Shown: in pieces, positions 7,191 through 22,978 of the stretch
How the letters are laid out: every line of letters begins with the position of its first letter
How positions within the stretch are numbered: the first letter of the stretch is position 1
Assembly (NCBI RefSeq): GCF_002006355.2
Contig: NZ_CP096980.1
Span: 3,828,814-3,860,813 of the forward strand
Reading direction: 5' to 3'
DNA: 32,000 nucleotides
Origin: Clostridium felsineum DSM 794
GTDB lineage: Bacteria; Bacillota; Clostridia; Clostridiales; Clostridiaceae
The notes under the pieces: generated by a model
The model's database searches: none
Told to the model about the DNA's origin: nothing
What the model saw: only the letters and a program-made list of their open reading frames with translations
Position numbers and translations under genes: made by a program

Positions 7191-7359
7191 TATGGTATTC
7201 CGTCTCCTTTGAACTATTATTTTTTATCATACTAATAACTATATCATTATTTAAGTTCTAAACCAATAATAAAAAAATTAAACATATGTACTTGCAGAGC
7301 TTTCCATTGAACACTATACTATATTAAGTAATATATTCTCATGAATGTGGGGTTTGAAT

Positions 7360-8721
7360 ATGAATAAAAAAGAGATATTAGAATTAAAAAGACGTTTTAA
7401 AAAGGATGAGTGTACCTTTACCAGAATGTGCGGTTGTTACGTAGACGCTCAAAAAAATATTGTATTAAAACTTAAAGAAACTTTTCTAAATCTACAGGAT
7501 GAAGAATTTTTCAAATACTTAGAAATAGCAAAAAAAACCTTATCAGGTACAGTAGGAAATAACCTTTTGGAGCTTGAATTTCCTCTTACAGAAGAAGCTG
7601 ATAATAATAGACAGCTTTCTCTTTTAGGTCTTAAAAAAAGTGCATTAAAAGATGATGGACTACTTGATAGCTTTTATAACTTAATTATAGATAGCTATGA
7701 TTATGCTGGTAATTTTTTAATACTTATTTTTCATGATGCTTATAATGTTATGACAAAAACTACAGATAATGCAAAATTAGATGAGTCTGAAGAAATATAC
7801 GAATATATATTATGTGCAGTATGTCCAGTATCTCTTTCAAAAGCAGCACTTGGATATCTTGAGGATGAAAATAGAATTGGAGCGCGAAATCGTGACTGGA
7901 TTGTTGGACCTCCTGATGTTGGATTTGTATTTCCAGCCTTTACAGACAGAAGTAGTGATATACACTCTATTATGTACTACACTAAAAATGCCAAAGATAC
8001 TCACCCTGAATTAATGGAGGGAGCTTTAGGCTGCTCTTCTAAACAAAGTGCTACTCAAGAGAAGGAAAAATTCAATACTATTATTCGTAAGGCTATTGGC
8101 AGCGATGATAAGAAATCAGAGCTTTTATTTATGGATATTCAAGAAACTCTCAGTAACGTCATAGATGATAATTCTACTATTAACGGTGATGATGCTGAAC
8201 CTGTAATTTTAACTAAAGACAATATTCAAGATATTTTAGTTGAAAGCGGACTCTCTGAAGAGATTACTGAAAAAATACAGAAATCTTATGAAGAAGAATT
8301 TTCTGATACACCACCTGTAGTAGAAAATTTAATAGATAAAAAAGCACTAAAAGTAAACGAACAACGAAAAAAAGAAAGAAGACTTGAAGAAAAGGTTCAA
8401 ATGTTAGAGGAAAGACTTGACCAAACAAATAAAGAGACAATAAAGGATTCAGAAGAGGCAGCTTTAGAAACTGATACTACTGCATCTTTAGGACAAGAAA
8501 ATAATATTGAACTAGAAATTGAAACGCCTTCTGAAACTGATATTGATACTAACACTGATATCGATACTAAAGCTTCTTCAAATTATGATATAGTACTTCA
8601 AGTAAAACCTGAAAAAGTACCGGAAATAAAATCGCAAATCATTGACGGTAAAAAATGCATTGTTATACCAATAGAAGATAATGAACAAGCTAATGTTAAT
8701 GGTGTAGATACTTCACTTTAA
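7360..8721 (+). CDS. DUF4317-like cytoplasmic protein with acidic low-complexity C-terminal tail
   Basis: Long ORF. I prefer the ATG at 7360 (GTGGGG 7 nt upstream) over the ORF-track ATG at 7345, which has no SD. The N-terminus MNKKEILELKRRFKKDECTFTRMCGCYVD resembles the clostridial DUF4317 family from memory. The C-terminal third is E/D/K/T-rich. Confidence 0.6.
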   Translation: MNKKEILELKRRFKKDECTFTRMCGCYVDAQKNIVLKLKETFLNLQDEEFFKYLEIAKKTLSGTVGNNLLELEFPLTEEADNNRQLSLLGLKKSALKDDGLLDSFYNLIIDSYDYAGNFLILIFHDAYNVMTKTTDNAKLDESEEIYEYILCAVCPVSLSKAALGYLEDENRIGARNRDWIVGPPDVGFVFPAFTDRSSDIHSIMYYTKNAKDTHPELMEGALGCSSKQSATQEKEKFNTIIRKAIGSDDKKSELLFMDIQETLSNVIDDNSTINGDDAEPVILTKDNIQDILVESGLSEEITEKIQKSYEEEFSDTPPVVENLIDKKALKVNEQRKKERRLEEKVQMLEERLDQTNKETIKDSEEAALETDTTASLGQENNIELEIETPSETDIDTNTDIDTKASSNYDIVLQVKPEKVPEIKSQIIDGKKCIVIPIEDNEQANVNGVDTSL

Positions 8722-9726: not shown

Positions 9727-9741
9727 GCATTTATATAAAAG

Positions 9742-10011
9742 CTGTGAAGAGAAGAGTAATTTTATCGATAGTTTTCAGAGAGTCTGCGTTGGTGTAAGCA
9801 GATAACTTCTTTAAAATGAAGCAAGTCTTGGAGCTACATATTGGATTGCTTTGCTTTTTAAGTATGATACTATGTCGTTTGTCTGCGTTATTAGACTTTT
9901 TAGAGTATTTAATGTACTTACTGAGGCTTTTATGGTGACGTAAAAGTGAATTAGGGTGGTACCGCGATTTTAATCGCCCCTTGGAATATTATTATTTCAA
10001 GGGGTGTTTTT
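9742..10011 (+). promoter_or_regulatory. T-box riboswitch leader, methionine specifier (AUG)
   Basis: Stem I elements are present: GA/K-turn motif TGTGAAGAGAAGAGTA, then CAGAGAG, then GGTGTAAG. A candidate specifier AUG at 9816-9818 is followed by a purine. The canonical T-box AATTAGGGTGGTACCGCG covers 9949-9966, and its UGGU would pair with an A73 discriminator. The terminator is CCCCTTGGAA (9977-9986) / TTTCAAGGGG (9995-10004) plus TGTTTTT. Confidence 0.85.
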
Positions 10012-11985
10012 ATGATTTCGAAAAGATTAATGCCAGGAGAACGTCCTACCTTTCCAAAAAAAGCAGTAGTTACTGCTGGTATGCCTTATGGTAATAAAAA
10101 TCTTCACTTTGGGCATGTTGGAGGTATGTTTGTTCACGCTGACGTTTATGCAAGATTTTTAAGAGATAGAATTGGAAAAGAAAACGTAATCTTCGTTTCT
10201 GGAACAGATTGTTACGGTTCGCCAATTTTAGAAAGCTACAAAAAACTTAAAGAAGAAGGTTTTCAAGGAACTATTGAAGATTATGTAACAAAAAATCACA
10301 ATAGTCAGAAGGAAACTTTAGATAAATATGATATTAGTCCAAATCTTTTTGGAACTTCTGCTCTAGGAAGATGTGGAGAAATTCATCAAGAAGTCTCTAC
10401 TGAAATTTTTGAAGAACTTTATAAAATGGGCTACATAAAAAAGATTTCTACTCCCCAATTTTATGACGAAGAATTTGGCGTTTTCTTAAACGGACGTCAG
10501 GTACTTGGAAAATGTCCAATTGCAGGTTGTACTTCAGAACATGCCTATGCAGATGAATGTTCACTAGGACACCAATATATGCCAAGCGACTTATTACATC
10601 CTGTCTCCGCATTATCAGGAAAAACTCCAGCCTTTAGAGATGTTACAAACTGGTATTTTGTTCTTGATGATTGCATAGATGAACTCGCCGAAAGAGTTAG
10701 TTATCTAAGAAAAAACAGTAATACTCGTAAATATCAACTGAATATAATTGATGAGTTCTTGAAAAAACCAATGCTTCATGTACCAAGAAAGTATTTTTCA
10801 GATTTAGCAGATTTAGAATCAAAATTGCCAAAGCACACAACAATAGATGATGAAAAGAAAAAATCTGTAACTTTTGAATTCGAATCACTTGAAGTAAGAG
10901 ATGAAGCAAGAAAAGCCTTAGAAGGTTTAGGTATTTTTTATACTGCAGGTAAAACTTTAGTTCCATTTAGATTATCAGGTAATGTTGAATGGGGAGTAAA
11001 AGTTCCTGAAAAAGAAGATTTAAAGAATTTAACTTTTTGGGTATGGCCAGAATCCTTATGGGCTCCTATTTCATTTACTAAAGCATACTTAGAATCAATA
11101 GGTAAAGATAAAGATGCTTGGACTAAATGGTGGTGTGATGATGAAGCATTAGTTTATCAATTTATTGGAGAAGATAATATATATTTCTACTCAATTGCTG
11201 AAATGGGAATGTTTCAGGCTCTAGCCAAAGGTGATACAAAAATCAATTTACCTCATATAATACCAAATCGCCATATTTTATTTATGGATACAAAAGCTAG
11301 TAGCAGTTCTGCAATTAAGCCACCTATGGCAGATGAACTTCTTAACTACTATACTGCCGAACAACTAAGAATGCACTTTCTTGGTCTTGGTCTTTCTAAC
11401 AAAAGTACAGGATTTAAACCACAAGTATTCATGAAAGAAGAAGATAGAGTTGGAGTTGACATGGTTCTTAAGGATGGTAATTTATTAACTAATGTATACA
11501 ATAGATTAATACGTTCTTGTTTCTATTCTGCTCAAAGTTATTTTGATGGAAAACTTTTAGTAGGAACTGTAAGTGACCATATTAAGGATTTAATAGAGAA
11601 AAAAGTTCTTGAATACGAAAAGCATATGTATAATCATGACTTCCATAGAATTGCATATGTGATGGATGAATTAATAAGAGAAGTAAATAAATACTGGTCT
11701 AGCAAAAGCCGCAGCGCAAATGATAATGATGATGAAGCTTTGAAAAAACAAACTTTAGTAGATTGTTTTTATGCTTGTAAGGTAATAGCCATATTGCTTC
11801 ATCCGATAGCTCCAAAAGGCTGTGAAATGTTCGCTGATTATTTAAATATTGGTGAAGAGCTTTGGAACTGGGATACTATATTTGATCCAATAGAAAACTA
11901 CAATAATTTCAACTCCGATCATAAATTAAAGTTCTTAGAACCAAGAGTAGATTTTTTTGCAAAACATGAAAATCAATTTAATTAG
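10012..11985 (+). CDS. metG: Methionine--tRNA ligase, divergent form (HFGH / KASSS motifs)
   Basis: 657 aa. MPYGNKNLHFGH is a HIGH-type motif. A zinc-knuckle-like CPIAGC...DECSLGH sits in the connective peptide. KASSS occupies the KMSKS position (nt 11293-11307), followed by a MetRS-like P..ADELLNYYTAEQLRMHFL. The gene is preceded by a T-box with an AUG specifier. Confidence 0.8.
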   Translation: MISKRLMPGERPTFPKKAVVTAGMPYGNKNLHFGHVGGMFVHADVYARFLRDRIGKENVIFVSGTDCYGSPILESYKKLKEEGFQGTIEDYVTKNHNSQKETLDKYDISPNLFGTSALGRCGEIHQEVSTEIFEELYKMGYIKKISTPQFYDEEFGVFLNGRQVLGKCPIAGCTSEHAYADECSLGHQYMPSDLLHPVSALSGKTPAFRDVTNWYFVLDDCIDELAERVSYLRKNSNTRKYQLNIIDEFLKKPMLHVPRKYFSDLADLESKLPKHTTIDDEKKKSVTFEFESLEVRDEARKALEGLGIFYTAGKTLVPFRLSGNVEWGVKVPEKEDLKNLTFWVWPESLWAPISFTKAYLESIGKDKDAWTKWWCDDEALVYQFIGEDNIYFYSIAEMGMFQALAKGDTKINLPHIIPNRHILFMDTKASSSSAIKPPMADELLNYYTAEQLRMHFLGLGLSNKSTGFKPQVFMKEEDRVGVDMVLKDGNLLTNVYNRLIRSCFYSAQSYFDGKLLVGTVSDHIKDLIEKKVLEYEKHMYNHDFHRIAYVMDELIREVNKYWSSKSRSANDNDDEALKKQTLVDCFYACKVIAILLHPIAPKGCEMFADYLNIGEELWNWDTIFDPIENYNNFNSDHKLKFLEPRVDFFAKHENQFN

Positions 11986-12120: not shown

Positions 12121-12429
12121 ATGAAAGTTAATGCAGCATTTATTTTTGTAGCACCAGAGGTTGATTATAAAAAACATAGAACCGCTATTGATACTCCTGT
12201 TGTTCATTTAAATGTAGTAGGAGTAAAGAATTATAGTGAAGCAGTTGAAGTAGCTAAAGAATTAGTAGCTGACGGCGTTAAGGCTATTGAACTTTGTGCA
12301 GGTTTTGGAAATGAAGGAATAGCACTTGTTTCTAAAGCAGTAAAGGGACAAGCTTCTGTTGGTGCAGTTAAATTTGATCATCATCCTGGGTTTGATTTTA
12401 AAAGTGGTGATGAATTATTTAATAACTAG
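12121..12429 (+). CDS. Small conserved hypothetical protein (possibly DUF6506-type)
   Basis: 102-aa ORF with a strong SD (AGGAGG 8 nt upstream) and its own terminator. The composition is globular and alpha/beta-like. The family name is recalled only tentatively. Confidence 0.6.
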   Translation: MKVNAAFIFVAPEVDYKKHRTAIDTPVVHLNVVGVKNYSEAVEVAKELVADGVKAIELCAGFGNEGIALVSKAVKGQASVGAVKFDHHPGFDFKSGDELFNN

Positions 12430-12437
12430 AATTTTCT

Positions 12438-12480
12438 TTCTGCACATAATAGCGAATTTTTATTATGTGCAGAAAATTTT
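12438..12480 (+). terminator. Rho-independent terminator of the 102-aa gene
   Basis: Perfect 14-bp inverted repeat TTCTGCACATAATA (12438-12451) / TATTATGTGCAGAA (12461-12474) followed by AATTTT. Confidence 0.7.
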
Positions 12481-13552
12481 ATTCTTTTATTTTTATAAAT
12501 TCTTTAATAGCTTTATCAAAACTCAAATCTTCTAGGTTGTCTAACCAATCATTTAAAATAACCATATACTTTCCTACACTATCTTTACTTTTTAAATAAT
12601 TATATATTATATGAATCTCATCTATGTCATTCTTATCAATATTGATAATTTGTTTTAAAGAATTATTAAAATACTTTTTAATCTTTAATTTTACTTCATA
12701 AACATTCAGCTTACTAATTTCATATTTCTCTGTAAATATAACTTTATTATATCTTATCAAAAATAATTTAATTTCTTTATCATTTAAAATTTCTATAAAA
12801 GCAATATTTATATTATTTTTTATAAAATTAATAATCTTTGTACCATCAATTAAATACTTTATTGCCTTTATATCATCTCTACACTTAACCGCTGCTTCAA
12901 AATCAAGATTTTCAGATGCCTTCTCCATTCTCTCTTCAATTTCTTTAAGTATAGTTAAATCTGTTCCATTAAGCATTTTTATAACTTTACTAATCACACC
13001 ATCATAATATTCTTTAAAAGCCTCATTCTCACACATACCTATACACAAATTCATAGAATATTTAAGGCAACCAGAAATCTTTCTAGCAGCATTTGTACAT
13101 AAAATTTTATTATGCTCTTTTATCCCTAAGATTGCTTTTTCTACAGTATTTTTGCTTGTATATGGTCCAAAATAAAGATTATTATCATCATTATTAGTTT
13201 CAATACACATATCAATACTTGGATATTTTTCATTCATTTTTATTCTTATATAGCAATAACCTTTTGGAGTTTTCATTTGCCTATTATATCTCGGTTTAAT
13301 TTCTTTAATTAATCTGCATTCAAGAAGTAATGCTTCAAATTCTGTATCTGTTAGTATATACTCAAAATCCTTAAGATTTTTCAATAATTTTATAACCTTT
13401 GGAGAACGTGTCTTGGAATTCATAAAATATGATCCAACTCTACTTTTTAAATTCTTAGATTTTCCTACATAAATAGTTGTACCTAATGAATCTTTCATTA
13501 TATACACTCCTGATGATAAAGGTAACTTTTTCACTTTTTCTCTTATATCCAA
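12479..13552 (-). CDS. Stand-alone UvrC N-terminal-half homologue (GIY-YIG nuclease + UVR domain; lacks the C-terminal endonuclease/HhH half)
   Basis: 357 aa with a TTG start at 13552 (AGGAGGG 6 nt upstream). The GIY-YIG region is SGVYIMKD...TIYVGKSKNLKSRVGSY...R..E.LLI. The UVR-like helix hairpin is LDFEAAVKCRDDIKAIKYL. Full-length UvrC is about 600 aa, so the 5'-incision half is missing. Confidence 0.7.
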   Translation of the reverse strand: MDIREKVKKLPLSSGVYIMKDSLGTTIYVGKSKNLKSRVGSYFMNSKTRSPKVIKLLKNLKDFEYILTDTEFEALLLECRLIKEIKPRYNRQMKTPKGYCYIRIKMNEKYPSIDMCIETNNDDNNLYFGPYTSKNTVEKAILGIKEHNKILCTNAARKISGCLKYSMNLCIGMCENEAFKEYYDGVISKVIKMLNGTDLTILKEIEERMEKASENLDFEAAVKCRDDIKAIKYLIDGTKIINFIKNNINIAFIEILNDKEIKLFLIRYNKVIFTEKYEISKLNVYEVKLKIKKYFNNSLKQIINIDKNDIDEIHIIYNYLKSKDSVGKYMVILNDWLDNLEDLSFDKAIKEFIKIKE

Positions 13553-13630: not shown

Positions 13631-15013
13631 TTAATCTTCAAGTTCTCTTTCTTTCGGAATCTTTCCCTTATTTATACCAAAAGCAAAATAAGCTATGATA
13701 ACTATAATGCAGAACACAGCACCGATAAGAAGTGGCATCTGTGTTGAAGAATTAAAGCACATACCCCCTAAAACTAAGCAAAGATATGCTACTACAATAT
13801 AATTTGCATATGGAAAAAGCTTTGATTTAAATGGATGTGTTTTCATTTGCTCTGCATGTTCTTTTCTGAATTTTATTTGACTAATACATAATACAAACCA
13901 TGGAGCCATTCCTGGAAGTACACTTGCACTATAAATATAAACAAACAGCTTTGAATTTGGGTATATATAATTTAAGACTACACCTATTAGTAAACAAACT
14001 AAAGTTGTCCTTATACCATTAGCTGGAACCCCTTCTTTATTTAATTTACCTAAGAATTTAGGTGCTTGACCATTTCTAGCCAATGTATACAGCATACGTC
14101 CACAGCTATAAATTCCACTATTACAACCAGACATAGCTGCTGTAAGAACTACAAAATTTATTATTCCTGCTGCTGCCGTAATTCCAATCTTGGCAAAAGT
14201 CAAAACAAAAGGACTGCCAAGTGAACTGATCTTATCCCATGGATAAATAGTCACAATTACGAATATAGCACCAACATAGAAAATGAGTATACGCCAAATT
14301 ATATTTTTAGTTGCTTTTCTTAATGTATTTTTAGGATCCTCAGCTTCTCCTGCTGTGATTCCAATAAGCTCTACGCCTTGATATGATGCTGTTACCATAC
14401 ATAAAGCAAATAACCAGCCTTTTAAGCCACCAGCAAAAAATCCGCCATGGGCTGTAAGATTTTTAAGCCCTATAGGCACACCATGATTACCAACACCAAA
14501 GAAAATCAAAGAAACTCCAACTATAAGCATAACTACAATAGTAACTACCTTAATTAGTGAAAACCAAAATTCAAATTCACCATAAAACTTAACTGAAGCC
14601 ATATTGGCTGCTGCTAAAATAGCTACACCAATTAGTGCTGGAATCCAAGCCGGCACAGACGGAAACCAAAACTTTACGTAGATTCCAATGGCTGTAATCT
14701 CAGACATACCAACTGCTATCCACATAAACCAATAGCACCATGCTGTAATATATCCTGCTAAGGGAGATATATACTTATTTGCATAATTTGCAAAGGAACC
14801 AGCTAAAGGTTCTACATAAAGCATTTCTCCCATAATTCTCATAATAATATACATAGCAATACCGGCTACGCCATAAGCTAGAAGTACTGATGGTCCTGCC
14901 CATTTAATAGTACTTGCTGATCCCATGAACAAGCCTACCCCAATTGTACCACCTAAAGCTATTAACTCAATATGACGAGCTTTTAGCCCTCGTGATAACT
15001 CTTTTTTTTCCAC
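13631..15013 (-). CDS. APC-superfamily amino acid permease (AAT family, CycA/AroP-like)
   Basis: 460 aa with about 12 TM helices. The N-terminal signature is [38 protein letters not shown]. The start is GTG at 15013 with AAGGGGGA 8 nt upstream. Confidence 0.85.
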
Positions 15014-15318
15014 CTGAAATGTCCCCCTTCAGAAATGTCCATCTAAAAATGTTTTTTTTATGCAGACACTTGTTTGTTATTCTAATATTATATTATCACA
15101 ATTTTTTGTTTTTTTCATTTTTTTCTACAAACTTTTCTGCATTTTTTTATATACACTTGAGTTAAATTTTATATTTTATATCAGCACAAATACACTTAAA
15201 ATCTATACTTTATCCATTTTGTAGTGTTAATTATAAAACATTTTAATTTTATAATTAACTAATAAATTTAATTCAATTTTCTTATACTATATTTAAAAAA
15301 TAAAGGGGGAAATACTAA

Positions 15319-15789
15319 ATGAAAATTGTTATTGCTAGCGATCATGCTGGTTTTTCTTTAAAGGAAGAAGTAAAACAATTTCTCCAAAGTAAAAATCATG
15401 AAATTTTAGACCTTGGAACACACAATAGTGATGCCTGTGATTTATCTGATTATATTTATCCTGCGGCATTAGCTGTAGCTGAAGGAAAAGCAGAACGTGG
15501 AATTTTTATAGATGGTGTCGGTTATGGTAGTGCTTTAATTGCAAATAAAATATATGGAGTGTATGCAGCTGTTTGTCAAGATCCTTTTTGTGCTAAACTA
15601 GCTCGTTCACATTCTAACACCAACGTTCTTTGCATTGGTGCAAAAATAATAGGTTCTGCAATAGCACTTGAAACTATAGATAGCTGGATGAATACCGACT
15701 TTTTAAGTAATACACCAAAATACAAATTGCGTGTGGATAAGGTAACTAATATATCTGAAAAACATTTAAAAAAATTATCTGAAATTTAA
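15319..15789 (+). CDS. RpiB/LacA/LacB-family sugar-phosphate isomerase-like protein (LacA-like, Asp at the catalytic Cys position)
   Basis: 156 aa with SD AAAGGGGGA. MKIVIASDHAGFSLKEEV and GIFIDGVGYGSALIANK...RSHSNTNVLCIGAKIIG align with E. coli RpiB GILICGTGVGISIAANK...RQHNDTNVLAFGSRVVG. Confidence 0.75.
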   Translation: MKIVIASDHAGFSLKEEVKQFLQSKNHEILDLGTHNSDACDLSDYIYPAALAVAEGKAERGIFIDGVGYGSALIANKIYGVYAAVCQDPFCAKLARSHSNTNVLCIGAKIIGSAIALETIDSWMNTDFLSNTPKYKLRVDKVTNISEKHLKKLSEI

Positions 15790-15795
15790 ATGTAC

Positions 15796-15833
15796 AAAAG
15801 GCTGTAAATTAATTTAAAAATTTACAGCCTTTT
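15796..15833. terminator. Bidirectional hairpin terminator between the isomerase gene and the RtcB operon
   Basis: Perfect 15-bp inverted repeat AAAAGGCTGTAAATT (15796-15810) / AATTTACAGCCTTTT (15819-15833), with A/T runs on both sides. It lies between the convergent stops at 15789 and 15836. Confidence 0.8.
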
Positions 15834-15835
15834 AA

Positions 15836-17416
15836 CTAATCCCATCTATCTAACTTATATACTACTGCTCCAGTACTGTTTGTAACACGAAATATAGCAT
15901 CAAAGTTATTTCCATATTCTAATTTTATACCACAGGCTGAAGAATTATCATAATCCTCTATTAATGCACTTTTTGAATAAGCTTCAATTGTTGAACGTAT
16001 TTCTCTTAATTCACTTTTAAGATTAGCTGGAAATATTGCATTTCCTGCATCCATATATTCAGTATCTTTAGCTCCTTCTAAAATAAAAAATACACTTTTA
16101 CTTTGATTAGGATAATCGCCAAACCACATAGAAGGCTGCATACAAACTGTATTTACTGTGCAATAACCTAAAGAAAGATTCCATTTTTTATATTCTGATC
16201 CCCCTTGATAAACATACCATGAAAAAGGATTTCGTTTTTCTTCTCTATCCCACTGAAGAATAGGTGGTGCATCGCTATAAGAAGCTGTTAATATTGCTGA
16301 ATAATTTCTTTTTTTATTTTCAACAAGATATTCAATTTTTTCTGCTAATGGAAGAACTGTTTCAGAAAATTTCCTAAATGTAATTGTAATTGGTAGCATT
16401 TCTATATTCTTCTCTTGGCTACTTTTAGTTTTTATATGTGCAAATACTCCACCTTTTTTAGCCTGTTCATTTTTAATCTTAGGTACCCAAACTTTTTCAA
16501 GTTCCTCTACTCTTGCAAATCTACGGACCAAAGATTTTTCAATTCCTAACTCTTTTACTATTTTTTCAGCTCTAGCTATATTTCCTTCTGTTGGTAACGC
16601 CTTAGGACGTTGATAGTTTAATGGGTCCATTTTTTGATTAAATCTATTTCTAATTGTCTCAAATGGCAGATTTAGAACAATGTCATCCAATAAAGTTCCA
16701 ATCATAGAGCTTTTAATATGACAATATCCATTAGGAGCAGTAGCTACTGTCTTCCATAGAATATTATCACTGTTTTTATTATTAGCACATTTATTATGCA
16801 CATCCATTAGCCATTCTGCAATTGATAAACACTTTTCAAATCCATAAAGTGATTCACTTTTTAAAAGCGTAACAGCTTGTTTTACAGTTTCAATTTTATA
16901 CTCTTTTAAGCCTTCCTTTAGTATTCTAAAATCTTCTAATTTCTCTGCACTAACTTGCTTTGCACTAAATAACCTTTTATGATAAACCATTTTAGATGGT
17001 ATATTTACAGATAAATGCTTCCATTTTCCTGTAGCGGGTTGTCCTAGAATTTCTATCTCTGATATAAAAACGCCTTCAACTTTTGAATTTAATACAATAT
17101 TTTTCATAGCTTTAACTGATTCTTTTAAAAAATCCGGTGCAAAACTTTCATTCCAAATAGCAGATTTTATTTTTCCAGCGTCACAAATAGTCACTAAAGC
17201 TCCATATTTTTCAATAAAACTTTTGCACGTTTTACAATTATAATGCTGACGTGATTTTTCTGGTAAATTGCTTAAATACGCATCAAATAATCCTTCAGCA
17301 TTAGTTACAAATAACTTCTTTTCTTCTTTAACGATAGACTCAAATTGTTTTTTAACAGCTTCTAAAAAATATTTATACTCATAACTGTTTTCCCTCATCA
17401 TTAGTTTTTCGCACAT
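15836..17416 (-). CDS. 526-aa protein of unknown function, third gene of the WYL/RtcB operon
   Basis: Long ORF. The ATG at 17416 has GGGGAG 6 nt upstream, placed directly after the RtcB-fusion stop (TAG 17434-17432). There are no TM segments. The protein has a single CxxC (HYNCKTCKSF, C61/C64) and a conserved-looking C-terminal segment FPANLKSELREIRSTIEAYS. I see no catalytic motif I can name. Confidence 0.8.
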   Translation of the reverse strand: MCEKLMMRENSYEYKYFLEAVKKQFESIVKEEKKLFVTNAEGLFDAYLSNLPEKSRQHYNCKTCKSFIEKYGALVTICDAGKIKSAIWNESFAPDFLKESVKAMKNIVLNSKVEGVFISEIEILGQPATGKWKHLSVNIPSKMVYHKRLFSAKQVSAEKLEDFRILKEGLKEYKIETVKQAVTLLKSESLYGFEKCLSIAEWLMDVHNKCANNKNSDNILWKTVATAPNGYCHIKSSMIGTLLDDIVLNLPFETIRNRFNQKMDPLNYQRPKALPTEGNIARAEKIVKELGIEKSLVRRFARVEELEKVWVPKIKNEQAKKGGVFAHIKTKSSQEKNIEMLPITITFRKFSETVLPLAEKIEYLVENKKRNYSAILTASYSDAPPILQWDREEKRNPFSWYVYQGGSEYKKWNLSLGYCTVNTVCMQPSMWFGDYPNQSKSVFFILEGAKDTEYMDAGNAIFPANLKSELREIRSTIEAYSKSALIEDYDNSSACGIKLEYGNNFDAIFRVTNSTGAVVYKLDRWD

Positions 17417-17431
17417 TACTATCTCCCCAAT

Positions 17432-19687
17432 CTAATTGCTAGCTTTAAAGTTATAAATAGGTTTTAAAATTTTATATACTTCTACTGAATCTTTAATATT
17501 TTCTATAATTTCTTCTATTGGTTTATATGCCATAGGTGCTTCATCCAATGTAGAATAATTAATCGATGTAGTATAAATTCCTTCCATTGATTTTTTAAAT
17601 TCCTCTAAACTTAATTCTGCTTTTGCCCTATTTCTACTCATAAGTCTGCCAGCACCATGTGGCGCAGAGTAATTCCAATCAGCGTTACCTTTTCCAAAAG
17701 CTAATATACTTCCATCTCTCATATTTATAGGAATTAAAAGTTTTTCATCCTTATATGCTGAAATACTTCCTTTTCTTATTATGTTATCCTTGAAATTTAT
17801 GTAATTATGCACTGTATTAAAATAACTAAAGTCTTTAAGACTTTTTCCCATTAACTTTTTTAATATTATATCTGCCATAGTTTCTCTATTTAATGCAGCG
17901 TATTCTTGACATATATTCATATCATTTAAATATTTTTCTCTATATTTTCCTGTCAAAAAACATAACTCTTTTGGGTATGATGGCTTCATATCATCATACT
18001 CTTTTTTTAGTTCTTTTAATTTAGCTTCTATAAGTTTTCTTTTCCCTTGTCTTTTGTATTCTTCTATAAGCTTATCTTTTTCCTTGAAATAATCTTCTTT
18101 ACCAGAACATAAATCAATGGCAATATTTTGATATATCTCTGCAACTTGCTTACCTAAATTTCTACTTCCTGAATGAATTACAAGATATATATTATCTTCA
18201 TCATCCTTATTAAGTTCAATAAAGTGATTTCCTCCGCCTAAAGTACCAATACTTTTTTCAATTCTTTTTGTATTCTTTAAATCCCTGTAACAGTATAATT
18301 CTTTAAGTTCATTAAACTTAACACTTCTCCCCTCATGTACTGACATTCCTGAAGGTACATATTTTCTAATAATCTCGTCTAGCTTTTCTAAATCTATATT
18401 AATTTTTCCAAGCTCAATTGTTGTCATTCCACAACCTATATCTACTCCTACTATGTTAGGAATAACCTTATCACCTAAATCAGCAGTAAAACCTATAACG
18501 CAGCCTTTACCTGCATGAGTATCTGGCATTATCACAATTTTACTATTCTTACAAAAGTCTTGATTACATAGTTCAACGATCTGTGCCACTACTTCTGGCT
18601 CTAATTTACTTGTATAAACTCTAGCTGTATTATATTTTCCTTTTACTTCTATCATCTTGTTATCATCCTTTCTACAAACATTAAATCCATTTATATCGAG
18701 AGCAACCCTTATTCTCCTTATTATTTCGTTTCTTATTTTTTCAGGTTCTAATACCTTAACATACGGTCCTAAAGCTAATATTTTTCTTATTATTTCTTCT
18801 TCCTCAAAAGTGTAATAAAAAAGTTTCAATTCATATTTATCTTTTGAAATGCACCTTGAATACCTCTCCAATTCTGAAAAGCTCATGAAACATCTTTCCA
18901 TAGCAAATTTTTTATCAATAACTTCCATAATAATAGGTTCTTTAGAATATTTTTGAGATCGCAATTTCTTTAAAATATCTTCTCTTTTTATATTAGAATT
19001 GATATTTTCATATATTTTAATATCACTCATACTAAAAATATCAGACATTACAAATCTATTTTCATCTGTAGAATACATTGAAACTCTGAACCTTTCATCC
19101 CTAAGTGAATACTCTAGTCTTATAGGAAAAGCACTTTTATCAAAATATCCATTCCCATATTTATTCATGCCCCTGTACCTTACACTTTTTTCTTCTGAAA
19201 TTGCCTTTAAAAGTTTCCTGAAATTTTCTTCAAATTCTTCAGTGCTTTTAACACTATATGCCTTAGATTGGTTAGTTATATGGACAATTTCATTTATTAT
19301 AGGTGCATCAACATCACAAATAGCATTTTTAAGCTTTTCTATTGTAGAACTTCTTAAAATATTTTTTATATCTTTATGCTCTAGCATATTTTTAAGCCAC
19401 GCCTTTTCTAAATTTGTAAATCTAACAGGTATAGCTTTATCTATTTTTATATTGGGATAATAAACACCGTTTTTTTCTTTAAGCAGATTAAAATTCTCAC
19501 TATTAGAATATTTATTAAGGAGAAGCCCTTCAAAACTCTTTTGATCATTTCCTATAACTTTTTCTTCAAATTCTTCTTCATCAATTATTTTAATTATATC
19601 TTGTTTAAATATTCCTCTTTTACACTCATTAAGTACTTTAAATACAATATGCATGTATCTATTTTTTCTTTCATCAAAGAGCTCCAT
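17432..19687 (-). CDS. rtcB: WYL-WCX sensor-like N-terminal module (res 1-~340) fused to full-length RtcB 3'-phosphate/5'-hydroxyl RNA ligase (res 345-751)
   Basis: RtcB motifs are all present: PDTHAGKG, VGVDIGCGM (D416, C419), GGGNHFIEL (H488), IHSGSRNLG (H505), TVHNYI (H627), APHGAGR (H677, guanylylation His). The N-terminal part has a WYL-like strand block (FPIRLEYSLRDERFRVSMYSTDENRFVMSDIFSMSDIKI). A WCX-like block follows (KYELKLFYYTFEEEEIIRKILALGPYVKVLEPEKIRNEI). Confidence 0.85.
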   Translation of the reverse strand: MELFDERKNRYMHIVFKVLNECKRGIFKQDIIKIIDEEEFEEKVIGNDQKSFEGLLLNKYSNSENFNLLKEKNGVYYPNIKIDKAIPVRFTNLEKAWLKNMLEHKDIKNILRSSTIEKLKNAICDVDAPIINEIVHITNQSKAYSVKSTEEFEENFRKLLKAISEEKSVRYRGMNKYGNGYFDKSAFPIRLEYSLRDERFRVSMYSTDENRFVMSDIFSMSDIKIYENINSNIKREDILKKLRSQKYSKEPIIMEVIDKKFAMERCFMSFSELERYSRCISKDKYELKLFYYTFEEEEIIRKILALGPYVKVLEPEKIRNEIIRRIRVALDINGFNVCRKDDNKMIEVKGKYNTARVYTSKLEPEVVAQIVELCNQDFCKNSKIVIMPDTHAGKGCVIGFTADLGDKVIPNIVGVDIGCGMTTIELGKINIDLEKLDEIIRKYVPSGMSVHEGRSVKFNELKELYCYRDLKNTKRIEKSIGTLGGGNHFIELNKDDEDNIYLVIHSGSRNLGKQVAEIYQNIAIDLCSGKEDYFKEKDKLIEEYKRQGKRKLIEAKLKELKKEYDDMKPSYPKELCFLTGKYREKYLNDMNICQEYAALNRETMADIILKKLMGKSLKDFSYFNTVHNYINFKDNIIRKGSISAYKDEKLLIPINMRDGSILAFGKGNADWNYSAPHGAGRLMSRNRAKAELSLEEFKKSMEGIYTTSINYSTLDEAPMAYKPIEEIIENIKDSVEVYKILKPIYNFKASN

Positions 19688-20960
19688 AACTATATAGCAT
19701 CTCCTTCCAATCTTCTGTAAGCTTATTTATTATGTCTCTTCCTTTAATAACCTTAATGTATCCTAAATATCCTCTTATCCAAGGAACCATCTCAATACTG
19801 TCATTTACAATCATATCTAAATGATATATTCCCTCTTCTATTTTAGTAATTTTTCCATTAGGTACTTCACTTTTTATTTTTTCGATAATATATATCTCTC
19901 TAGTTTCATCAATTTTTATCTCTAATTTAATTTCTTCTTTAACTTTACCTCCACTCAAATTTACACTTGACCAACTATATTTAAATTGTTTATCATAAAG
20001 CTTTTTAAAATTATTATCTTTATAAACTTCTTTTGAAATTTTAATCTCTGCTATTCTATCAAGTCTTAAAGTAACACAACTATTATTGTCTGAAAATGCT
20101 ACTAAATAGAACCTTCCACAGGATGAATCATATCGAATTTTATAAGGTTTTAATTGCTCTTTTGAAGTTTTATTAGTACCTTTACCACTCCTATATTCAA
20201 GCTTAATATATCTTTTTCTATGTATAGCTCTTAAAATTTTCCAAAGTATATCTTCTTCAATTACTGGATGAAAATATAAACCTTTATACTGAAAATAGTC
20301 TTTTTCCTTTACTTCTATTCCTCTTTCATACAAAGCGTAATCTTTTAAATTTTTCTCAAAATAATACCCAGCAGTTACAGGTAGTATAATATTTTTAAAC
20401 AAAGCTACTGAATCAATTAAATTTTCTATTTCTTCTAAGCTAAGTTCTTTTAAAATATCATCTTCTATACTATAATTCTTCGTTCTTTTTATTGTGTCAC
20501 ACTTTACTATACCAAGCTTTTTTACCATTTCATTAAGCTTTCTTTCTACTGTTTTGCTACTTATATCATCATAAGATATAATACCTTCATTAATTAAACC
20601 ATCTTCTATTTCTCTAAAAGAACATGGTTTATTTTTTGCATTCAAAAACATCAAAAGATTAAAATATAAAATCAAATCTGCCTTTGTAAAACTTTTTGTC
20701 ATATATGTATTAACCAGAAAATTCTCCGTGTTTGTTATGGAATCATATGTTAAAGCTAATAGCTTATTTCTTCCGTCTCTATCTATTCTAATAAACTCAG
20801 ATTCTATGTACTGTTGTATTCTTCTCATTTCATAGCTTATCTTTCTAGAACTCATATTTCTTTTTTCTTCAAGATCTTCTCTTGAAAAGCATCCATATAG
20901 AAAAACATCTCTTAGTATATCTCTAATTATATTGTAGTGCTTTATAAAATCGTTGAACAT
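19674..20960 (-). CDS. HTH-WYL-WCX domain protein (PafB/PafC-, BrxR-, CapW-like architecture), probable regulator/partner of the RtcB fusion
   Basis: 428 aa with SD AAGGAGAG 7 nt upstream. HTH-like segments are MSSRKISYEMRRIQQYI and CSFREIEDGLI...SSKTVERKLNEMVKKLG. The WYL-like block is YKIRYDSSCGRFYLVAFSDNNSCVTLRLDRIAEIKI. The WCX-like block is IYHLDMIVNDSIEMVPWIRGYLGYIKVIKGRDIINKL. The stop overlaps the next gene's start by 14 nt. Confidence 0.75.
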   Translation of the reverse strand: MFNDFIKHYNIIRDILRDVFLYGCFSREDLEEKRNMSSRKISYEMRRIQQYIESEFIRIDRDGRNKLLALTYDSITNTENFLVNTYMTKSFTKADLILYFNLLMFLNAKNKPCSFREIEDGLINEGIISYDDISSKTVERKLNEMVKKLGIVKCDTIKRTKNYSIEDDILKELSLEEIENLIDSVALFKNIILPVTAGYYFEKNLKDYALYERGIEVKEKDYFQYKGLYFHPVIEEDILWKILRAIHRKRYIKLEYRSGKGTNKTSKEQLKPYKIRYDSSCGRFYLVAFSDNNSCVTLRLDRIAEIKISKEVYKDNNFKKLYDKQFKYSWSSVNLSGGKVKEEIKLEIKIDETREIYIIEKIKSEVPNGKITKIEEGIYHLDMIVNDSIEMVPWIRGYLGYIKVIKGRDIINKLTEDWKEMLYSYGAL

Positions 20961-21010
20961 TGAATGCTCTCCTTTTCTGTTTTAGATTACATTAAGTATA
21001 ACTTATGAAG

Positions 21011-21039
21011 AACATATTTCACAGACAAAAAGCTTGCAA
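21011..21039 (-). promoter_or_regulatory. Candidate promoter of the WYL/RtcB operon
   Basis: On the minus strand: TTGCAA (21039-21034), a 17-nt spacer, then TATGTT (21016-21011), about 50 nt upstream of the ATG at 20960. The -10 matches the consensus at only 4 of 6 positions. Confidence 0.3.
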
Positions 21040-21047
21040 GAATATTT

Positions 21048-21085
21048 AAAAGGCCGTAAATCCATTTAAGAACTAACGACCTTTT
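21048..21085 (-). terminator. Rho-independent terminator of the serine hydrolase gene
   Basis: On the minus strand: AAAAGGTCGT / ACGGCCTTTT (10 bp with one G-U pair, 18-nt loop) followed by TTTTAAATATT. It insulates the WYL/RtcB operon from upstream transcription. Confidence 0.55.
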
Positions 21086-21100
21086 ACTAAACTATATATT

Positions 21101-22978
21101 TTAAAACTTAAGCAAATTCCAATTTAACACACTAAAAACAAAGGCATATAGTACCAAAATCTTAAGTATTGCTATAAGGTTATAATAAATTTTACTTTTT
21201 TCTTTTATAATAACTATTAAAGACAATATACTATAAAACACAGTAAGAATAATTGAAATTATTAAAAATAATGATGCTGTTTTTATATACCAGGTTATAC
21301 CATAATACATCTCATAGGATACTATCCAGTATAAAATTCCAAATAAAGACACTATATTTAATAAACCTATGAAAAATATTGTACGTTTAAGAACTTTTTT
21401 AATTATATTTTTTTCTTCTTTTCTTTTAAAAATACTAATAAACCCTTTTAATATTTCCATTACAAAAACTAATAATGAAACTATAAAAATAATTAAACTT
21501 AATGCATAGTTATCCTTAACTCCTACCTTTTCAAAGCTATCATAAGGCGTATTATTAAAGAAAACATATTTTATCTTTGCATTATTTTCTCTAAAAGCCA
21601 CCAATTCATTATTATCAGCTCTTCTAAAAAGATTATTAGAAACCTTTATAAGCCTTGCTGTTTCCTTTTGTTTTAAATGACTTACACCATGATAAACTAA
21701 ATTATTATCATCATATGTAATTTTCACATCCTCATTTTCATCAATCGCCCCTAAAAAACTGATAAACTTTAAAATATTACTTTTTGCATTATCATGGTAA
21801 GACCTATAAGTACCAACATACCTTAAAGCCTCTTTTGAACTTATAACTTTAGTAGACTCAACTTTTTTATTACTATTTTTATCAATATATTTATTAAAGA
21901 AACTATTTTCTATATTGTTTATAGCAGGTGCGGCTCCAGTTAGATTATTTGATACTATATAAATTCCAAGATTATCTTCAGTATCTAACAGCATATCATC
22001 AAAATATCCTATAGCCAGTGCTCCCTCATGTCCGATAAGTCTTTTGCCCTTAATATTTTTTTCAAAAAATCCATACCCAATTCCAGATAAATTTTTATCA
22101 TTTGAAAAGTGATGCTGCTGCATTAATTTTATTGTCTTTTCATTTAAAATTTTATTATTTTTATAGGTTCCCTTCTGTAATTGTGCTATCATAAATTTCC
22201 CCATATCCTTTGGCGAAGCATTTATACCTCCAGCAGGATTATCATTATAATAATAGTAGTCCTCTTTAAATAATGAATTATAGTTTTTTGCCAAATTATT
22301 TATTGGTAAGCCCACAGTACTATTTTTCATATTTAAAACATCAAAAATATTTTTTTGTATATAATCTTCATATTTCATTCCAGATACGTTTTCTATAATT
22401 CTTCCCAATAAGTCTATACCAATATTACTATATAAACATACCTTACCTGGCTCATTTACAACTACTGGTGGATGCTCTTTTAGAAATTCCTCTAAAGACA
22501 TTACCTCCTTTTTATTTCTTGCTGAATCATATGACATTGTAGCTTCATCGATTCCAGAAGTATGAGTAAGCAAATCTTCTATTATTACTTTTCTTTTGAA
22601 ATCATTTTGAATCTTAATATCCTTTAAATACTTATTAGCATCGTCTTTTAAATCAATTTTTCCCTCTTCATAAAGCTGCATAATTGCTGTTTCAGTAAAT
22701 AATTTTGATGTAGAACCTATTCTGTAGACACTAGTATTTGTATCTGCTTTAATTTTATTTTTAATATCCTGATATCCTAAACTATTTTCATAAACTACAT
22801 TACCATCCTTAACAACCACAACACATAGACTTGGCAACTTATATTTATCAAAGTTTTTTTTAGTTACATCATCTAAAAATGGCTTAATATCCTTTGCCTT
22901 TGTATTATAAGAATTAAATAAATTTAAAAATGTAAAAATGCAAATTAAAAAAAATAAGAACTTACTAATAGTTTTCAT
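21101..22978 (-). CDS. Membrane-anchored serine hydrolase of the beta-lactamase/PBP (class C / EstB-like) fold with a C-terminal multi-TM domain
   Basis: 625 aa with SD GGGAGGA 7 nt upstream. It has an N-terminal signal/anchor, SxxK (GSTSKLFT), YxN (LYSNIGIDLLG) and H-x-G (IGHEGA) in the KTG position. The C-terminal ~140 residues form about 4 hydrophobic helices. Confidence 0.8.
   Translation of the reverse strand: MKTISKFLFFLICIFTFLNLFNSYNTKAKDIKPFLDDVTKKNFDKYKLPSLCVVVVKDGNVVYENSLGYQDIKNKIKADTNTSVYRIGSTSKLFTETAIMQLYEEGKIDLKDDANKYLKDIKIQNDFKRKVIIEDLLTHTSGIDEATMSYDSARNKKEVMSLEEFLKEHPPVVVNEPGKVCLYSNIGIDLLGRIIENVSGMKYEDYIQKNIFDVLNMKNSTVGLPINNLAKNYNSLFKEDYYYYNDNPAGGINASPKDMGKFMIAQLQKGTYKNNKILNEKTIKLMQQHHFSNDKNLSGIGYGFFEKNIKGKRLIGHEGALAIGYFDDMLLDTEDNLGIYIVSNNLTGAAPAINNIENSFFNKYIDKNSNKKVESTKVISSKEALRYVGTYRSYHDNAKSNILKFISFLGAIDENEDVKITYDDNNLVYHGVSHLKQKETARLIKVSNNLFRRADNNELVAFRENNAKIKYVFFNNTPYDSFEKVGVKDNYALSLIIFIVSLLVFVMEILKGFISIFKRKEEKNIIKKVLKRTIFFIGLLNIVSLFGILYWIVSYEMYYGITWYIKTASLFLIISIILTVFYSILSLIVIIKEKSKIYYNLIAILKILVLYAFVFSVLNWNLLKF

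Follow-up and report, generated by a model that had tools for sequence, protein, structure and literature searches.

A clostridial operon encoding a WYL regulator pair, one partner fused to the RNA ligase RtcB, as a probable RNA-damage response and repair unit

Background

How do Gram-positive bacteria sense damage to their RNA? RtcR explains the proteobacterial case only. Here we address this question using a three-gene operon located on the minus strand of a 32,000-nt stretch of the Clostridium felsineum DSM 794 genome (hereafter "the window", to which all coordinates given without a locus number refer). The operon encodes a WYL protein (WYL-A), a second WYL protein fused to the RNA ligase RtcB (WYL-B::RtcB), and a member of the protein family DUF8224. 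We report that it belongs, as a local variant, to a broad family of RNA-repair operons under WYL control, and we consider it fairly probable that the locus, including the steps of the mechanism proposed below, represents a clostridial RNA-damage response and repair operon in which a pair of helix-turn-helix (HTH)-WYL-WCX proteins takes the place of RtcR.

A preliminary description of this DNA had presented the operon as a stand-alone WYL-RtcB system. It is rather one of the variants in a large family where free-standing WYL-A and WYL-B are found beside varied RNA-repair cargo. Such a family has already been predicted by comparative genomics, and the window operon does not establish a new category of WYL-RtcB system. 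What is new is the rule that WYL-A and WYL-B come as a pair together with a candidate operator, the clade of fusion proteins, the extension of YrlA-like RNAs into Clostridia, and the link between DUF8224 and RtcB.

Two WYL proteins encoded by an overlapping gene pair

The operon consists of three open reading frames (ORFs; lengths in amino acids, aa):

19674-20960, minus strand: gene 1, WYL-A, ORF of 428 aa, with an AGGAG Shine-Dalgarno sequence at 20969-20973
17432-19687, minus strand: gene 2, WYL-B::RtcB fusion, ORF of 751 aa
15836-17416, minus strand: gene 3, DUF8224 (PF26675) protein, ORF of 526 aa, with a GGGGAG Shine-Dalgarno sequence

The stop of gene 1 and the start of gene 2 overlap by 14 nt (ATGGAGCTCTTTGA), and the spacer between genes 2 and 3 is 15 nt long (ATTGGGGAGATAGTA) with the GGGGAG Shine-Dalgarno sequence inside. 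No terminator was seen between genes 2 and 3, either with a terminator scan or in the junction sequence.

WYL-A matches the Pfam WYL domain (5.7e-10) and the PADLOC WYL profile (3.9e-23), while its Pfam WCX match is weak (0.0047, below the cut-off) and the sole hint of an HTH is a weak profile match with the winged HTH protein 2d1h (E 0.076). Of the HTH, WYL and WCX blocks read earlier in gene 1, the WYL domain is confirmed. The protein has a conserved N-terminal region followed by WYL (~239-307) and WCX (~343-422), and its alignment with nine orthologues (A2) has a mean column identity of 62%.

For WYL-B the structure is more informative. The AlphaFold model (83 homologues in the alignment, pLDDT 79.7) predicts a winged HTH (residues ~6-78), a helical linker, a five-stranded WYL beta-barrel (~169-225) and an alpha/beta WCX domain (~235-332). 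When the model was compared with the PDB using Foldseek, 32 of 32 significant matches (7.4e-11 to 5e-5) were HTH-WYL-WCX regulators, headed by PafBC bound to RNA polymerase (7.4e-11) and DriD (1.4e-9), followed by BrxR and CapW (~1e-6) and then by WYL1 (6oaw). The structural alignments to PafBC and DriD cover ~270-370 columns, HTH included. WYL-B is accordingly predicted to have the full fold of the PafBC-/DriD-type WYL transcription factors, and the earlier assignment of HTH, WYL and WCX to residues 1-340 of gene 2 stands, with PafBC, DriD, BrxR, CapW and WYL1 as the only significant PDB matches. At the sequence level the N-terminal part of gene 2 matches Pfam WCX (2.1e-5, above the gathering score), and residues 143-328 match the PADLOC WYL profile (1.2e-9). 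PDB profile searches with the WYL-A and WYL-B alignments gave PafBC only below threshold, and structure comparison was needed.

A metagenome scan with the WYL-A alignment gave 372 relatives, for which 80 loci were kept (loci, from metagenomes and genomes, are referred to by L numbers). WYL-B adjoins WYL-A in 71 of 77 loci among these, and in the genome examples WYL-B always follows WYL-A with the same short overlap, after which comes RNA-repair cargo. WYL-A and WYL-B are a conserved overlapping gene pair, and the tandem PafB/PafC-like arrangement suggested in the preliminary description extends well beyond C. felsineum. PafBC, an actinobacterial heterodimer that activates the DNA-damage response, is likewise encoded by tandem genes for two HTH-WYL-WCX proteins, and PafBC and DriD of Caulobacter are the best structural matches to WYL-B. 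The window pair differs from PafBC in that WYL-A carries ~100 aa of additional N-terminal sequence and WYL-B a 407-aa C-terminal enzyme, and the identity is ~15%.

A clade of WYL-B::RtcB fusion proteins

Gene 2 can be divided as follows:

18692..19687, minus strand: WYL-B module, residues 1 to ~332 (AlphaFold and Foldseek)
18656..18691, minus strand: fusion linker of ~12-16 residues, ALDINGFNVCRKDDNK (alignment of 33 fusion proteins)
17432..18655, minus strand: RtcB RNA ligase module, residues 345-751 (Pfam, phrog_1075 and motifs)

The ligase part matches Pfam RtcB (PF01139; 4.7e-62, 211 bits against a cut-off of 27) and, over residues 337-750, phrog_1075 (2e-136). D416 and C419 lie in VDIGCG, H488 in GGGNHF, H505 in IHSGSR and H677 in PHGAGR, all motifs that align to the RtcB structures of P. 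horikoshii and T. thermophilus; H627 is present but was assigned by position only. Judged by these motifs the metal-binding and guanylylation residues are complete, in agreement with the intact RtcB described before. The activity to be expected of such a ligase is the GTP- and Mn2+-dependent joining of RNA ends bearing 3'-P or 2',3'-cyclic-P to 5'-OH ends.

The fusion is genuine, as had been maintained. The protein annotated as CLFE_036160 in C. felsineum DSM 794 is 100% identical to the 751-aa window protein, and ~33 clusters from independent genomes and metagenomes contain fusions of 748-768 aa with 66-75% identity to it, which rules out an assembly artefact. Across the 33 proteins of the fusion clade the linker varies in sequence while its length is nearly fixed, and the methionine at the ancestral RtcB start (M345) is still present in about two-thirds of them. 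Since the linker length is near-constant and the ancestral methionine is often kept, the alignment suggests a single origin of the fusion. Relatives carry the same genes unfused: in Clostridium sp. JS66 (L002) a divergent WYL-A/WYL-B pair lies beside rtcB-DUF8224, in C. muellerianum (L012) such a pair lies beside DUF8224 alone, and in seven metagenomic loci (L140, L145, L147, L150, L155, L161 and L173) WYL-A, WYL-B and RtcB are adjacent. On these comparisons the fusion is the derived state, because the relatives have the genes either divergent or adjacent as separate units. A second, independent WYL-B::RtcB fusion in the clade with 36% identity was considered and rejected, as stop codons part the genes in all seven loci.

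The fusion raises the possibility that WYL-B acts on the enzyme rather than on a promoter, i.e. that the WYL/WCX part of gene 2 is an allosteric RNA sensor that licenses RtcB, with gene 1 as its dimer partner, and that the complex acts on RNA in the manner of WYL1, a protein that binds single-stranded RNA and stimulates Cas13d. The fusion has been kept in ~33 clusters with a near-constant linker length, fusions of WYL to enzymes such as Cas3, nucleases and helicases are known (PMC4012209), and the RNA-binding accessory protein WYL1 is among the fold matches. On the other hand, WYL-B retains a complete winged HTH and its best matches are DNA-bound activators; free-standing WYL-B occurs in at least 70 related loci, often with other genes before RtcB or with divergent transcription; a conserved DNA motif is present at the promoter (see below); and RtcB is absent from the 2014 catalogue of WYL enzymatic fusions (PMC4012209), so that a precedent for the WYL-RtcB combination is lacking there. 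Licensing of the ligase, as first proposed for this locus, is possible but not the simplest reading for a protein that keeps its DNA-binding domain, and we regard it as distinctly unlikely to be the main role of the WYL part. The licensing and transcription factor roles of WYL-B::RtcB are not mutually exclusive. There are also ~80 clusters of free-standing WYL-B homologues of 325-350 aa.

In one metagenomic fusion locus (L258, 5505-6793) WYL-A was called as two genes (117 and 316 aa) while the fusion gene is intact; the regulator gene may have suffered a frameshift or be a pseudogene there. A 153-aa antisense ORF inside gene 2 (18999-19460, plus strand) is Leu/Ser-rich, of low complexity, and almost certainly not a gene.

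The WYL pair lies beside RNA-repair cargo in related loci

Cargo was counted in the 57 loci that have at least 3 kb of flanking sequence. At least one repair marker is present in 48 of these: RtcB in 36, Band-7 in 16, Ro60 in 14, a HEAT protein in eight, DUF2828 in four and PrfH in three. The pair is rarely found in surroundings other than RNA-repair genes. Among sequenced genomes, C. saccharoperbutylacetonicum has the pair with Ro60, RtcB and RlaP, Desulfosporosinus youngiae with Band-7, HEAT, PrfH and RtcB, and an Acetivibrio genome with Band-7 and ABC-F. These combinations are the module types already published, namely RtcB, Rot/TROVE with Y RNA, and SPFH/Band-7 with tRNA-like RNA (PMC7824862). 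The same literature holds it likely that cyclic-phosphate RNA is sensed by WYL and CARF transcription factors and that these control RNA repair (PMC9503650), and WYL transcription factors were predicted to regulate RNA repair by Burroughs & Aravind (2016), as cited in PMC9503650 and PMC7824862. As represented in these citing papers, their proposal is the same idea as ours: WYL factors sense RNA with cyclic ends and switch on operons with RtcB, Rot-TROVE-Y RNA or SPFH-Band-7.

The family may also be compared with the proteobacterial rtcBA and rsr-yrlBA-rtcBA operons of E. coli and Salmonella, which are controlled by the CARF/sigma-54 activator RtcR. In the clostridial case, too, RtcB would belong to a stress-inducible operon with a ligand-sensing regulator of its own. 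The window, however, is without RtcR, RtcA, any sigma-54-type regulator, Ro60 and Y RNA; its regulator is the HTH-WYL-WCX pair, one member of which is fused to RtcB, and its accessory protein is DUF8224. Sister loci (L005, L006, L258, L259 and L091) go further in their likeness to rsr-yrlBA-rtcBA, with Ro60 and a YrlA-like tRNA-like RNA beside rtcB.

These RNAs were recognised with the Rfam YrlA model, which matches gaps beside Ro60 or Band-7 genes with 36-42 bits against a gathering threshold of 69:

L005 9396-9516, L006 9552-9674, L091 10165-10289: YrlA-like RNAs adjoining Ro60 or Band-7 genes
L093 7141-7244, L095 7176-7284 and ~35 further loci: YrlA-like RNAs adjoining Ro60 or Band-7 genes

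The RNAs, which are present in clostridial and other Firmicute loci, have a T-arm GGTTCGAnTCC and a D-arm TAGCTCAGTTGGTAGAGC, and the Band-7 type has a second T-arm-like hairpin at the 3' end. A custom covariance model (R1) built from five of the sub-threshold matches identified 44 copies when run over 65 related loci, each with the same orientation as the adjoining Ro60, Band-7 or RtcB gene, and most Ro60 and Band-7 loci also hold such an RNA. The sister loci thus extend YrlA-like tRNA-mimic RNAs into Clostridia, below the Rfam threshold. With filters off the same model gave no RNA in the DUF8224 loci (window, L013, L002, L012 and L256), the best match in the window being elsewhere with E 0.86; Rfam in E-value mode gave nothing relevant in 15000-21400, and ARAGORN gave nothing. 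These searches, together with Rfam in gathering mode, led us to reject a Y RNA or tRNA-like RNA hidden in the window.

Two observations concern genes close to the pair or its cargo. In L002 (3570-4106) and L012 (4596-5135), where the pair is divergent from DUF8224, a ChrB_N-like gene of ~179 aa directly follows WYL-B. In L093 a BsrG-type toxin-antitoxin small RNA (12335-12567; Rfam RF01412, which passes the gathering score with 60 bits) and a gene for a Hol_Tox peptide are located immediately downstream of the Desulfosporosinus RtcB.

DUF8224 occupies the position of Ro60

Gene 3 had been taken for a protein without a family. It belongs to PF26675 (DUF8224), which is recorded on all homologues among the matches listed (at least 120), and it matches phrog_1735 (1.1e-114). 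The family has 3,994 representatives of 50%-identity clusters (profile search, E<=1e-3), is present in 542 phage records, or roughly 1% of sequenced phage genomes, and occurs in Clostridia, Bacilli, Myxococcota, Burkholderia, Thiothrix and others. No paper mentioning DUF8224 or PF26675 was found in the literature searched.

The co-occurrence of the three genes is seen beyond the window genome, in Clostridium sp. C8-1-8 (L013) and in L256/L257. The third gene is interchangeable and not a fixed component: fusion loci have DUF8224 (window, L013, L256/L257), Ro60 with a Y-like RNA (L005, L006, L258 and L259), or DUF2828 (L007). In the window operon DUF8224 stands in the place taken in sister operons by Ro60 and Y RNA, DUF2828, or Band-7 and tRNA-like RNA. 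Ro60 with Y RNA, and DUF2828/DUF7788, share with DUF8224 the same operon position, sometimes before a HEAT protein; this protein follows Ro60 in L097, L101, L104 and L108, and the same HEAT protein follows DUF8224 in L256. DUF8224 differs from them in having no fold match and no associated tRNA-like RNA that we could find. Its AlphaFold model (pLDDT 88.3) has three predicted domains, gives no fold match in the PDB (Foldseek, best E 0.5), and in BFVD matches only uncharacterised phage and giant-virus proteins. Neither Pfam (a set without PF26675) nor NCBIfam gave any domain in DUF8224 or its longer phage homologues, a PDB sequence search gave none, and Pfam gave no TROVE or vWA match in any of the three operon proteins. 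A divergent Ro60/TROVE-vWA or DUF2828 protein was rejected on the Foldseek result and an hhalign probability <1%.

Residues that are invariant in homologues down to 22% identity (alignment A6) include C61, C64, H134, R56, Y268, R270 and R298, and C61-x2-C64 and H134 are kept even in phage homologues with 22-26% identity. This conservation suggests a Cys2-His metal site and a basic surface; it fits nucleic-acid binding and does not exclude catalysis.

Outside the WYL operons RtcB is immediately upstream of DUF8224 on two viral contigs of ~120 kb (L226 and L233), in which RtcB has 24-26% identity to the clostridial RtcBs, an RtcB fragment lies downstream of DUF8224 in an uncultured bacterium (L077), and in Stenotrophomonas phage QDWS359 DUF8224 adjoins a polynucleotide kinase/phosphatase and a ligase. 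The adjacency of RtcB and DUF8224 is seen in three independent lineages and, taken together with the Ro60 substitution, offers a first functional lead for this orphan family.

It is conceivable that DUF8224 is a passenger, i.e. a mobile, phage-derived gene with no role in RNA repair, so that the unit would consist of WYL-A and WYL-B::RtcB only. This would agree with its abundance in phages (542 records) and among ~4,000 clusters, with the position of the phage copies in early or replication regions, and with the fact that most cellular and viral DUF8224 loci have no repair neighbour or indeed any conserved neighbour. It agrees less well with the 15-nt junction between genes 2 and 3, which has a Shine-Dalgarno sequence and no terminator, or with an adjacency that recurs in L013, L256/L257 and L002, with the WYL pair alone in L012, with very different RtcBs in L226 and L233, and also in L077, and DUF8224 sits exactly in the Ro60 slot ahead of the HEAT protein. 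We find the passenger explanation doubtful, and prefer to see DUF8224 as a part of the repair operon.

On the viral contigs L226 (6419-12341) and L233 the RtcB-DUF8224 genes are followed by genes for a NadR-like NMN adenylyltransferase-Nudix protein and NAMPT, that is, an NAD+ salvage module beside RNA repair. Some phage homologues of DUF8224 are long (659-687 aa; L261 3998-6034, L262 3998-5977, L263 3971-6034 and L008 5959-7989) and have an insertion of ~150 aa with a DLDxH...GGxLDVD...VENI motif that is absent from the clostridial proteins; one record notes COG4676 (YfaP) for one such protein, and the Pfam set gave no match.

A candidate operator and a proposed mechanism

Upstream of WYL-A two elements were identified:

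21023..21039, minus strand: conserved 17-nt motif TTGCAAGCTTTTTGTCT, candidate operator (upstream-region alignment)
20995..21022, minus strand: promoter-like site GTGAAA, 16 nt, TATACT (promoter scan)

The motif lies just upstream of the weak -35 hexamer and is conserved in the alignment of the upstream regions of the window, L005, L006 and L013. With at most two mismatches, and always on the gene strand, it is also present 81-276 nt upstream of WYL-A in L098, L105, L109, L112, L113, L129 and L130, which gives the window and 10 related loci in total; most loci at a greater distance gave no match to it. The -35 hexamer GTGAAA is poor, whereas TATACT/TATAAT is at the same alignment position in four of the five close loci. 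From its position and conservation we infer that the motif is a candidate operator of the WYL-A/WYL-B regulator. A site that abuts a weak -35 hexamer is what would be expected for an activator, as in PafBC and DriD, and because the hexamer is poor activation is suggested.

By analogy with these proteins, WYL-A and WYL-B would form a PafB/PafC-like heterodimer that binds TTGCAAGCTTTTTGTCT; the pairing of their genes in 71 of 77 loci and the 14-nt overlap lend this indirect support. PafBC and DriD sense single-stranded DNA (ssDNA) and control DNA-repair genes. As the window cargo is RNA repair, the ligand is presumed to be RNA, and the WYL domains may bind broken RNA, e.g. tRNA or rRNA fragments with 2',3'-cyclic-phosphate, 3'-phosphate or 5'-OH ends. 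Switching by an RNA ligand would have its counterparts in ssDNA for PafBC and DriD and in damaged tRNA, which RtcR senses (PMC7790460). The liganded dimer would then switch the operon on, and RtcB would seal the breaks. The fusion would fix a 1:1 ratio of sensor to ligase and place the ligase beside the RNA-binding sensor, such that sealing by the tethered RtcB might remove the inducing RNA and shut the response off. DUF8224 could be a non-homologous, RNA-independent substitute for Ro60/Y RNA or for the Band-7 scaffold, and might bind damaged RNA or present it to RtcB, possibly via the Cys2-His metal site and the invariant arginines.

A further-reaching version combines two proposals. DUF8224 would be a new-fold RNA-repair cofactor working with RtcB in bacteria, in hundreds of large phages and in some giant viruses, a protein-only replacement for the Ro60/Y-RNA or Band-7/tRNA-like-RNA scaffold that helps to recover tRNA and rRNA cut by ribotoxins. 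WYL-B::RtcB and WYL-A would at the same time be a self-extinguishing transcription factor-enzyme that senses broken RNA, induces its own operon and seals the inducing RNA. We put this combination forward tentatively and think that it is unlikely to hold in full.

Several points weigh against the WYL pair as regulator of an RNA-damage response that includes DUF8224. The proposed heterodimer, its binding to DNA, its ligand and whether it activates or represses all come from analogy with PafBC and DriD, and the repressors BrxR and CapW match the WYL-B fold as well, which makes activation versus repression uncertain. WYL-A has its extra conserved N-terminal region, and no similarity between WYL-A and WYL-B is detectable with BLASTP (E 0.18), so that the earlier designation of the two as paralogous applies at the domain level only. 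Instead of an adaptation, the fusion may be a neutral read-through between neighbouring genes, and in the literature searched we found no experiment on these WYL proteins or on any other family member. The weakest link is the role of DUF8224: the many polar residues that it keeps invariant are compatible with an enzyme too, its hhalign probability against Band-7 and the HEAT protein as well as Ro60 and DUF2828 is <1%, it is linked to RtcB or the WYL pair in ~8 of ~165 loci, and when ORFs around 80 GTDB and 80 IMG/VR loci were clustered no neighbour was common to more than eight loci, spurious antisense ORFs aside.

For the WYL-controlled repair operon these data provide a concrete and widespread candidate RNA-damage sensor, with 372 relatives in one metagenome collection, that can be tested directly in solventogenic clostridia amenable to genetics. 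As one regulator subunit is naturally fused to RtcB, the fusion provides a handle to pull down the sensor with its RNA ligand.

Boundaries and surroundings of the operon

The unit and its flanks are delimited as follows:

21101-22978: upstream beta-lactamase-family gene (Pfam Beta-lactamase match)
21048..21085, minus strand: hairpin terminator of this gene and 5' boundary of the unit (-18.1 kcal/mol, z -5.5)
15796..15833, minus strand: hairpin ending the operon, with a 14-bp perfect stem (-20.6 kcal/mol, z -6.6)

The z-scores are relative to shuffled controls, and both hairpins escaped a simple terminator scan, since each has a loop of more than 8 nt. The hairpin at 15796-15833 is common to the operon and a convergent rpiB-like gene (15319-15789, plus strand; Pfam LacAB_rpiB). 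Sequence and folding bear out the ORF coordinates, the 14-nt overlap, the 15-nt gap with GGGGAG and both hairpins as given in the preliminary description.

That description also considered a counter-defence module, and WYL regulators often control defence systems, BrxR in the case of BREX and CapW in that of CBASS. An anti-phage cassette under a WYL regulator would moreover fit the match of PADLOC WYL profiles to genes 1 and 2, the phage-rich distribution of DUF8224, and the role of RNA repair in countering anticodon nucleases in phage-host conflict (PMC7824862). The PADLOC matches in genes 1 and 2 are, however, to generic WYL profiles and profiles of a WYL-containing Cas3c region only, neither gene 2 nor gene 3 matches an effector model, gene 3 has no match of any kind, and what the related loci carry as cargo is machinery for repair and quality control and not toxins. 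The operon neighbours are ordinary chromosomal genes (rpiB-like, amino-acid permease, beta-lactamase-family, histidine kinase and T-box MetRS-like) and do not resemble a defence island or a prophage. A defence function is therefore very improbable and the claim is not upheld. A prophage or defence-island origin of the locus was likewise rejected on its housekeeping neighbours and the restriction of PADLOC matches to WYL domains. The G+C content is ~28% throughout the window, with no compositional break at the operon.

Three further features of the window may be mentioned. A T-box leader (9735-9984, plus strand; Rfam RF00230, 128 bits, E 2e-28) precedes an ORF (10012-11985, plus strand) for a 657-aa class I (Met-type) tRNA-synthetase-like protein. 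A 357-aa protein with a GIY-YIG nuclease domain and a UVR motif, much shorter than UvrC, is encoded at 12479-13552 (minus strand). A DUF4317 gene (7345-8721, plus strand) lies ~7 kb from the operon and another is found at the edge of the fusion locus L007, which may be a coincidence.

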